Sequence record: PP445229.1
DNA length: 64,000 bases
DNA from: Escherichia phage EC.W2-6
Strand: one strand, 5' to 3'
The translations under genes and the position numbers were made by a program. Below, one piece after another: positions 7,243 to 19,177 of this stretch. The first letter of the stretch is position 1, and the number at the start of each line of letters is the position of its first letter. The notes beneath the pieces were generated by a model. That model was not told where the DNA came from and searched no databases. It was given only the letters and a program-made list of their open reading frames with translations.

Positions 7243-7491
7243 ATGGCTAGTAAAAGTATTTGGATTCTGAGTCGTGTTGAAGAGACAGACAGAGGGGAGT
7301 ACACAGAAGTGCTTTGCTCTTTCATTACATACCCCACAAAACAACAGCTTGAAGATGCTGGAGTAGAAATAAATCTTTCTCAATCTCTTTTTGATAAAAA
7401 GGTTTCCAAGTCAACAGCCCCATTCTTTGGTTATTACTACACACTTGATAGTTTGGAGCTACTGATGAATGATTCTTGTTTGGAGAATTAA
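7243..7491 (+). CDS. hypothetical protein
   Basis: ORF abutting thyX stop; no motif. Confidence 0.4.
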   Translation: MASKSIWILSRVEETDRGEYTEVLCSFITYPTKQQLEDAGVEINLSQSLFDKKVSKSTAPFFGYYYTLDSLELLMNDSCLEN

Positions 7492-7625
7492 TGTTGGAAG
7501 AAGATGACGATGTGTTCTGCACCAAGTGTGGGATGACAGTTGATGATGCATATGACCCAAGTGTAGAAATTTGTCCATGTTGCAGAGTATGTGAATATTG
7601 CTGTTCCCACAACTCAGAGGATTAG
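7491..7625 (+). CDS. small Cys-rich (zinc-ribbon-like) protein
   Basis: 44-aa ORF, CTKCG...CPCCRVCEYCC; TAATG overlap with upstream gene. Confidence 0.3.
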   Translation: MLEEDDDVFCTKCGMTVDDAYDPSVEICPCCRVCEYCCSHNSED

Positions 7626-7637
7626 CAGGAATTCCTT

Positions 7638-7871
7638 ATGAAGATAAAACATATTACAGATATTCAGGAGGCATTTAGAATGCTTCCTCGAAGAGAGAAA
7701 GATAAGATTAAGAAGCTTATTCAAGTCTATGGTCATACATCTGAAGGTGATGTAGATTATATGCCTGCCACTTTTAGAGAATGCGGAATTGCTCGTAATT
7801 TCACATTTGATCATAAAGTATTTCAGCAATTCGTTGACCACTGGAGAAAAGATGGAAAAGAAAGTCTGTAG
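7638..7871 (+). CDS. hypothetical protein
   Basis: ORF with RBS; no motif. Confidence 0.4.
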   Translation: MKIKHITDIQEAFRMLPRREKDKIKKLIQVYGHTSEGDVDYMPATFRECGIARNFTFDHKVFQQFVDHWRKDGKESL

Positions 7872-8037
7872 CTTCTGTAATAAAGAGAAGACTGTCGCCA
7901 ACTTTAAACCTAATCCTGTAACTGGTCTGACCCATGTCATGTGCCACTCTTGCAGGATATATCTTGAAACAAAACACACTATCAATAGATTGCATTATTA
8001 TCACCCAACAACATTCAAATTTAAGGTTGTGAAATGA
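7852..8037 (+). CDS. small zinc-finger protein
   Basis: CSFCN...CHSCR; internal ATG with GGAG RBS chosen over the listed 7789 start. Confidence 0.4.
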   Translation: MEKKVCSFCNKEKTVANFKPNPVTGLTHVMCHSCRIYLETKHTINRLHYYHPTTFKFKVVK

Positions 8038-8363
8038 TTGACAGTAATACATTTAGGACTTCAAATGGAAGTGAAATAAGTCCCGCTGAAGTAATCAATC
8101 GGCATAGAAGGCAATTGATCATCCATTCCTATTTGTATTACTGGTTGGATGACCCTATCTGGTCTGATGATAAATGGCAACAAGTTGCTAATGATCTAGT
8201 GGAGCTGCAAGCTCTGTATCCAGAGCCTACCGGAGTCTTTGACAGTGAGTTCAAAGATTGGGATGGTTCTACAGGGATGCACCTCCCACACAATGAGACT
8301 GTTGCTTGTATGGCGACAGCTGTTTACAGGATTCATAAAGATATGAACCATGAAGTGCTCTAG
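8034..8363 (+). CDS. protein resembling NAD-dependent DNA ligase N-terminal Ia domain (stand-alone)
   Basis: HSYLYYWLDDPIWSDDKWQQVANDLVELQALYPEP mirrors LigA Ia (HNYRYYVLDDPEISDAEYD...L.ELEA..PEL); no adenylation domain follows. Confidence 0.4.
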   Translation: MIDSNTFRTSNGSEISPAEVINRHRRQLIIHSYLYYWLDDPIWSDDKWQQVANDLVELQALYPEPTGVFDSEFKDWDGSTGMHLPHNETVACMATAVYRIHKDMNHEVL

Positions 8364-8535
8364 ATGTGAAGGAACAAACCTTCATTTAAGTAACAAGGTT
8401 ATCAGAGAGCTTGCCAAAGGCTCTCCAACCAAAGGGAAGAACAAACGATTTACTAACGTCAGGGTTTATACAGCAATCTGCAAAGACTGCTTAACTACTG
8501 AGTGTCATTACGAAGAAATTGGAGAGCGTAAATGA
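8350..8535 (+). CDS. small zinc-ribbon protein
   Basis: CSRCEG...CKDC; overlaps neighbours. Confidence 0.4.
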   Translation: MKCSRCEGTNLHLSNKVIRELAKGSPTKGKNKRFTNVRVYTAICKDCLTTECHYEEIGERK

Positions 8536-9269
8536 GTCGTCGTCAATCACGGAAAGAATCACGGAAAGACCTTCGTCGAGAAGCACTTGTTACTCGTAAG
8601 GGTAAGCGAGAGTATGAAGAGGTGGTTTTAGCAAAGCCTGTAGTCCCTCAGAACCAGTTTCAGTCTGAGCTACTCAATGCTATTAAGACTAAACAAGTTG
8701 TGTTCACAGACGCTCCTGCGGGCTGTGGTAAGACCTTTGTAATCACTTCCACGGTTATTGATGCACTGAAGAGTGGTAAGATTCAGAAGATCATCCTGAG
8801 TCGACCTTCAGTTGGCATGGGTAACTCTCTTGGGTTACTTCCGGGAGGAATGCGTGAGAAGTTTGAACCATACCTGATGCCTATCATTGATGTTATTACT
8901 CAGCGATACGGTAAGGGATTCTATGAATGCCAAATCGGAAATGGTAACATTGAATTTGTACCTCTGGAATATCTCCGTGGTCGCTCTTTCAACGATGCCA
9001 TTGTTATCGTAGATGAGTTCCAGAACACAACTAAGGATGAAGCCTTCTCCATCATGACTCGATTGGGAGAAACCTCTCAATTGTTCTGTATGGGTGATAC
9101 AAACCAGCATGATATGCGTGGTCGCGAGAGTGGTCTAACTTGGGCTACTAACTTTATTGATGAACACGATCTGTATGAGTTTGCTGAGATTGTAGATGGT
9201 GAATCAGATGATATTGTTCGTTCTGGTTTCTGTAAGGCGATTGTTAAAGCAATGGAAAAGAAAGCTTAA
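8532..9269 (+). CDS. phoH: PhoH-like ATPase
   Basis: Walker A DAPAGCGKTF and PhoH-like length/layout. Confidence 0.8.
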   Translation: MSRRQSRKESRKDLRREALVTRKGKREYEEVVLAKPVVPQNQFQSELLNAIKTKQVVFTDAPAGCGKTFVITSTVIDALKSGKIQKIILSRPSVGMGNSLGLLPGGMREKFEPYLMPIIDVITQRYGKGFYECQIGNGNIEFVPLEYLRGRSFNDAIVIVDEFQNTTKDEAFSIMTRLGETSQLFCMGDTNQHDMRGRESGLTWATNFIDEHDLYEFAEIVDGESDDIVRSGFCKAIVKAMEKKA

Positions 9270-17546: not shown

Positions 17547-17690
17547 ATGCAGGGTTGACTTACCTTTTTTAGAGAGTGCTCAAGGAAAAGCACTAGCCAC
17601 TACGTTGGAGTGGTATCAGGACCAGTACACAGAATGTGCTGCCAATCACAATGGATTGTTAGAAGCTCTGAAAGAGCGTGGAATAGAATA

Positions 17691-17691
<1 letters not shown>
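17431..17691 (+). CDS. candidate o-spanin lipoprotein (Rz1-like)
   Basis: MRK...ALVMTMSAC lipobox-like signal; begins in +1 frame inside the preceding ORF. Confidence 0.4.

Positions 17692-19177
<1,486 letters not shown>

Follow-up and report, generated by a model that had tools for sequence, protein, structure and literature searches.

The product of the gene at positions 8034-8363 of the Escherichia phage EC.W2-6 sequence is a small, non-catalytic, phage-specific member of the solo Nlig-Ia family, and it is not a DNA ligase. The gene lies in a window of 64,000 nucleotides (sequence record PP445229.1) from a Kuravirus, a phiEco32/SU10-like phage of E. coli, and its orthologues are phiEco32 gp62, SU10 gp059 and ECBP2_0056. 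The protein is not new: it falls into a curated Pfam family (PF22745) that was described in 2022. The gene, the parts of its product and the neighbouring ORFs are as follows:

7852..8037, plus strand: 61-aa ORF with a CxxC...CxxC zinc ribbon, 5' of the Nlig-Ia gene (PHROG 15951, phiEco32 gp63)
8022..8026, plus strand: TAAGG, Shine-Dalgarno-like, 7 nt 5' of the ATG (read from the sequence)
8034..8363, plus strand: complete Nlig-Ia ORF, 109 aa and stop codon, ATG to TAG, encoding the solo Nlig-Ia family protein
8082..8216, plus strand: two-helix hairpin, residues 17-61, homologous to LigA domain Ia (LigA ~2-53)
8124..8180, plus strand: residues 31-49, HSYLYYWLDDPIWSDDKWQ, with the counterparts of the residues that contact NMN in LigA
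8250..8288, plus strand: residues 73-85, FKDWDGSTGMHLP, (nearly) invariant family-specific loop without LigA counterpart
8295..8351, plus strand: third helix, residues 88-106, family-specific
8350..8535, plus strand: 61-aa ORF with a CxxC...CxxC zinc ribbon, 3' of the Nlig-Ia gene (PHROG 14369, phiEco32 gp61)
8532..9269, plus strand: PhoH-like P-loop ATPase (context only)

According to the original prediction, which was made from the DNA letters, the product resembles domain Ia of LigA, and this resemblance was recovered, well beyond chance, in Pfam, PHROG, hhalign and PDB profile matches. The protein matches Pfam PF22745 (Nlig-Ia) with E=6.3e-35 and 120.1 bits (gathering cut-off 27) over residues 16-102, which correspond to profile positions 1-90 of 92, and PHROG 6466 with E=7e-43. 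When the family profile was compared to E. coli LigA by hhalign, residues 15-66 of the query were aligned on LigA 2-53 with a probability of 93.5% (E=2.3e-7), and in the PDB the profile matched the LigA entries 5tt5, 4glx and 2owo at E=5e-4. The profile was needed here, since a single-sequence phmmer search of the PDB gave marginal LigA matches (E 0.06-0.1). The motif quoted in the prediction is present as H31-S-Y33-L-Y35-Y36-W-L-D39-D-P ... S44-D45 ... W48 ... L55-V-E-L-Q-A-L-Y-P-E64. Fold comparison confirmed the helical hairpin of Ia: the best matches in the PDB were NAD+-dependent ligases (LigA), followed by generic helical proteins, and the rmsd between the hairpin and LigA domain Ia was 0.6-1.1 Å over ~47 residues. 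A sub-threshold Pfam match to Imm41 (E=3e-4, 21 bits versus a cut-off of 26.9) concerned the same helical hairpin and was treated as non-specific.

The likeness to Ia is limited to residues ~15-66; nothing in LigA corresponds to residues ~67-109, so that about 40% to half of the protein is not Ia, a point absent from the prediction. The loop in this part has the consensus FxDWDGSTGMHLP, and the third helix is likewise present in the relative P0034. Together, the invariant loop and the third helix complete a compact domain of ~100 aa. Outside the segment with the putative ligand contacts, 71 aligned sequences show no variation at L55, F73, W76, G78, T80, G81, H83, L84 and P85. The phage protein carries the whole family signature, which consists of HSYLYY, a D, an aromatic residue with Q or D, and the C-terminal block F.DW.G.TG..LP.

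Solo Nlig-Ia proteins were described in 81 phages by Iyer, Burroughs, Anantharaman & Aravind in 2022 (Viruses 14:1977; PMC9503650), with the Kuravirus protein ECBP2_0056 as a named example; any ligase was absent in 80 of these 81 phages. A literature search for experiments with solo Ia proteins or for phage-LigA interactions returned only this study, which is computational. In our searches the family comprised 1,077 cluster representatives at E<=1e-3. Almost all of the 150 best matches listed are ~100 aa long, and the length of the homologues was 69-189 aa in 143 of 143 cases. The protein described here has the same stand-alone architecture, with 109 aa and Nlig-Ia as its sole domain match.

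In the records of SU10, phiEco32, YF01 and many other phages the protein is labelled 'DNA ligase' or 'NAD-dependent DNA ligase'. These labels are all that speaks for a DNA ligase as annotated, or for a decaying ligase fragment, and we regard both as extremely improbable; identity as a DNA ligase is refuted by the domain content. The expectation that no adenylation domain follows Ia was borne out, the downstream region being occupied by the 61-aa zinc-ribbon ORF and PhoH. A tblastn search of the window with full-length E. coli LigA matched LigA 18-51 only and gave no match for the NTase, OB, HhH or BRCT domains. The gene did not match PF01653, and its product has neither a nucleotidyltransferase domain nor the KxDG lysine for adenylylation, while an OB fold, a Zn finger, HhH and BRCT were not found in the protein by Pfam and tblastn. 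Moreover, 109 aa is far below the size of a ligase. The existence of a large family of ~100 aa with its own invariant C-terminal block points to purifying selection on the short form and not to decay.

Evidence for another ligase in the phage was also sought. The whole-genome annotation of SU10 does not list one, and no ligase was found when ten large unannotated ORFs were searched with Pfam, although five ORFs without any Pfam match could be highly divergent ligases. The replication set of the phage includes a primase-helicase, a polymerase and a 5'-3' exonuclease, and a ligase is not among them. A phage without its own ligase should therefore depend on host LigA.

In the bacterial NAD+-dependent ligase, the two-helix hairpin holds the nicotinamide-mononucleotide half of NAD+. 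Tyr22, His23, Asp32, Tyr35 and Asp36 of E. coli LigA are reportedly needed for the reaction with NAD+, as Sriskanda and Shuman are said to have found in 2002. The equivalents in the phage protein are Y35 (Tyr22), Y36 (His23), D45 (Asp32), W48 (Tyr35) and Q49 (Asp36). A tyrosine at the His23 position, as in Y36, is also found in LigA of T. filiformis, while two of the five NMN-contact residues are replaced (Tyr35 by Trp and Asp36 by Gln), so that the full set of residues for the reaction with NAD+ is not present. Invariant in the 71 aligned relatives are H31, S32, Y33, L34, Y35, Y36, D45, W48 and Q49. Trp and Gln at the Tyr35 and Asp36 positions are invariant within what we call the WQ subfamily, whereas relatives from phages of Gram-positive hosts retain Tyr/Phe-Asp. 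In view of the invariant Trp and Gln, ligand or affinity may differ from those of LigA, and the example of LigA is not sufficient to assume NMN binding. Judged from the sequence, NAD/NMN binding by the phage protein, as suggested in the original prediction, is plausible, and it is likely that a nicotinamide nucleotide (NAD+ or NMN) is bound in a pocket of Y35, Y36, D45, W48 and Q49.

The Nlig-Ia gene is tightly embedded between its neighbours. The stop of the upstream zinc-ribbon ORF overlaps the Nlig-Ia start (ATGA), and the downstream zinc-ribbon ORF overlaps the 3' end of the Nlig-Ia gene by 14 nt and the start of PhoH by 4 nt. Because of the latter overlap, PhoH is probably translationally coupled. 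Both zinc-ribbon proteins are possible partners of the Nlig-Ia protein; for the downstream one this is suggested by the Kuravirus-syntenic relative P0010, which has a fusion of Nlig-Ia with a zinc ribbon and was found on two independent contigs. BLASTP detected no similarity of the P0010 zinc ribbon to either of the flanking 61-aa ORFs. A promoter scan around the Nlig-Ia gene remained at chance level (13 found versus 13.9 expected). The GenBank label 'putative NAD+ diphosphatase' in SU10, which belongs to a 44-aa Cys-rich ORF (~7476-7625 of the window), was rejected as evidence for an NAD module, because the ORF has no Pfam match and is too small for a Nudix enzyme. Another component of the NAD/ADP-ribose network, a Macro domain protein, is encoded at 17610-18131 of the window.

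Across unrelated phages, the Nlig-Ia gene recurs in replication or nucleotide-metabolism modules. In Kuravirus it has ThyX upstream and PhoH and DNA polymerase downstream; it is located between UvsX and the clamp loader in Dp-1, after DNA pol I in an Arthrobacter phage, between NrdD and NrdG/primase in a Clostridium phage, and near gp59 and gp32 in a metagenomic phage. When 148 neighbouring ORFs from 35 dereplicated loci were surveyed with Pfam, replication genes were found; no NAD-processing (NAD/ADP-ribose) family was among the 25 most frequent families, and no conserved gene partner was found in the 35 loci. The positional association is weak, since replication genes abound in early and middle phage regions in any case. 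In a yeast two-hybrid screen, Dp-1 orf16 bound host RuvB (PMC4840434), but RuvB may be a sticky prey since it bound another Dp-1 protein too.

Additional elements are attached to the domain in some relatives. The C-terminal end of 18 of 120 homologues, and of more in a wider sample, is Q-x-[SAGC]-L-F-COOH, following a variable Pro/Ala linker. This terminal pentapeptide fits the β-clamp-binding consensus QL[S/D]LF / QxxLF (PMC12309361), and about 10-15% of the relatives have a tail with such a QxxLF motif, which is predicted to be disordered. In the same loci, 11 of the 93 ORFs of the family terminate with the pentapeptide, against effectively 0 among 4,393 ORFs outside the family. By its sequence, the motif is a candidate clamp-binding site in these relatives. 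The tails occur only in phages of high GC content (61-66%, against 42% in the window) and mostly in one subclade; the protein encoded in the window ends with HKDMNHEVL and has no clamp-binding motif. In Rhodococcus phage ReqiPepy6 gp102 and its relatives, Nlig-Ia is fused to an SF2 helicase, a fusion limited to one lineage; in a Rosetta-stone check, Gordonia phages with the unfused helicase had no solo Nlig-Ia nearby. P0183 and P0208 have a C-terminal domain that matched only PHROG 13900 ('minor head protein') and, below threshold, Mu Gam/Gp157-like proteins, and was uninformative.

Based on these observations, we tentatively favour a non-catalytic nicotinamide-nucleotide binder which works at the replication machinery and possibly together with host LigA. 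That the site of action is the machinery of DNA replication or repair, and that the protein is not a free cytosolic sensor, is put forward with similar or slightly greater reserve. The nicotinamide nucleotide would be held in the Ia-like pocket, and the protein would most likely dock onto host LigA, the sole ligase available to the phage, or would recruit or feed it, with the sealing of phage Okazaki fragments and nicks as the outcome. In other phages the domain seems to be tethered to the replisome by the β-clamp-like C-terminal motif or by the helicase fusion; in Kuravirus, which has no clamp tail, the overlapping zinc-ribbon ORFs and the PhoH ATPase may take over this tethering. It is tempting to go further and to speculate that solo Nlig-Ia is a replisome-targeted, trans-acting partner, a detached Ia which captures or loads host LigA at the nicks of ligase-less phages, although we hold this to be improbable. 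Such a partner would use the β-clamp QxxLF tail in some phages, the helicase fusion in others and perhaps zinc ribbon and PhoH here, and it could sustain ligation while host defences deplete NAD+.

A different role was proposed by Iyer et al. (PMC9503650) from the conserved ligand-binding residues and the absence of a ligase, namely that of an NAD+ sensor or shield against the host. The solo domain would bind free NAD+ and either signal to the phage that the host has deployed NADase effectors (TIR, SIR2 and similar) or keep NAD+ from them by sequestration. The invariance of the pocket residues and the presence of the Macro domain protein in the same phage are in line with this. However, the Macro gene is ~9 kb away and unlinked, the most frequent neighbour families include none of the NAD/ADP-ribose type, a single-domain binder of 100 aa has no evident signalling output, and stoichiometric shielding against millimolar NAD+ is implausible. 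Further, a free cytosolic sensor would not be expected to have clamp-motif tails, a helicase fusion or a place in replication modules. We thus consider the sensor or shield rather unlikely. Only a little lower we place the possibility that the hairpin was re-purposed, with the WQ pocket serving another small molecule (e.g. one derived from ADP-ribose) or the protein being a pure protein-protein adaptor. Here the invariant Trp/Gln versus Tyr/Phe-Asp in relatives from phages of Gram-positive hosts, the varied fusion partners and the additional invariant polar block DWDGSTGMHLP, which probably remodels the pocket, have to be set against the aromatic stacking kept by Trp and the hydrogen-bonding capacity kept by Gln. 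Moreover, the remaining motif and the C-terminal block are common to both subtypes, which suggests one ligand class, and positive evidence for another ligand was not found.

The original prediction also raised interference with host LigA; its inhibition as a means of host shut-off is very unlikely in our opinion. A free Ia could dock on the nucleotidyltransferase domain or trap NAD+/NMN and thereby block adenylylation; the protein's homologue in LigA is the domain which closes over the active site, and since LigA requires Ia in cis solely for the reaction with NAD+ (reviewed in PMC7470946), step 1 could be blocked by a competitor in trans. But the phage has no ligase and should depend on host LigA, so that its own lagging-strand synthesis would suffer. 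An inhibitor would be expected in phages with their own ATP-dependent ligase, and the opposite is seen in the carriers surveyed, of which 80 of 81 are without ligase (PMC9503650). Thus, cooperation with LigA is more plausible than its inhibition.

The immediate value of the finding is corrective, the family being already described computationally: a protein of ~100 aa is mislabelled as "DNA ligase" in hundreds of phage records, among them those of reference genomes and recent papers on Kuravirus. If the proposed link to replication is true, it would show how ligase-less phages co-opt the NAD+-dependent ligase of the host, and phage DNA replication would be tied to the supply of NAD+, the target of many bacterial defence systems. 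Handles to separate this function from an "NAD+ sensor" are provided by the clamp tails, by the fusions to helicase and zinc ribbon, and by the two pocket variants (WQ and Y/F-D).

Among known systems, the sponges Tad1, Tad2 and Acb2 are analogous in function only. They are small, non-catalytic, phage-encoded nucleotide binders and exemplify the mode implied by a 'shield', whereas the genomic context of Nlig-Ia is replication and not anti-defence; likeness to them was found neither in Pfam, PHROGs and the PDB sequence search nor among the PDB fold matches listed. With clients of the β-clamp such as PolC (C-terminal QLSLF) and DnaE (QMGLF), some Nlig-Ia relatives share the terminus, ending with QLSLF, QMSLF, QASLF, QMALF or QMGLF. 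LigA domain Ia (E. coli residues 1-69; PDB 5tt5, 2owo, 1tae, 1v9p) is a homologous two-helix hairpin and has the H-x-Y-x-Y-Y...D motif in common with the phage protein, including the tyrosine that stacks on nicotinamide. In contrast to LigA, the phage protein is without NTase, OB, Zn, HhH and BRCT domains, the homology stops at LigA ~53, and an invariant loop and a third helix are added. The description by Iyer et al. (2022) is silent on the C-terminal block, the WQ and Y/F-D subtypes, the clamp-motif tails and the zinc-ribbon and helicase fusions, and the words 'clamp', 'DnaN' and 'zinc ribbon' are absent from its text. The copy in the window has no feature that distinguishes it from the published solo Nlig-Ia proteins, being stand-alone, ~100 aa long and encoded by a phage without ligase, and in ECBP2, phiEco32 and SU10 the same orthologous gene is found between ThyX and PhoH with 78-98% identity.

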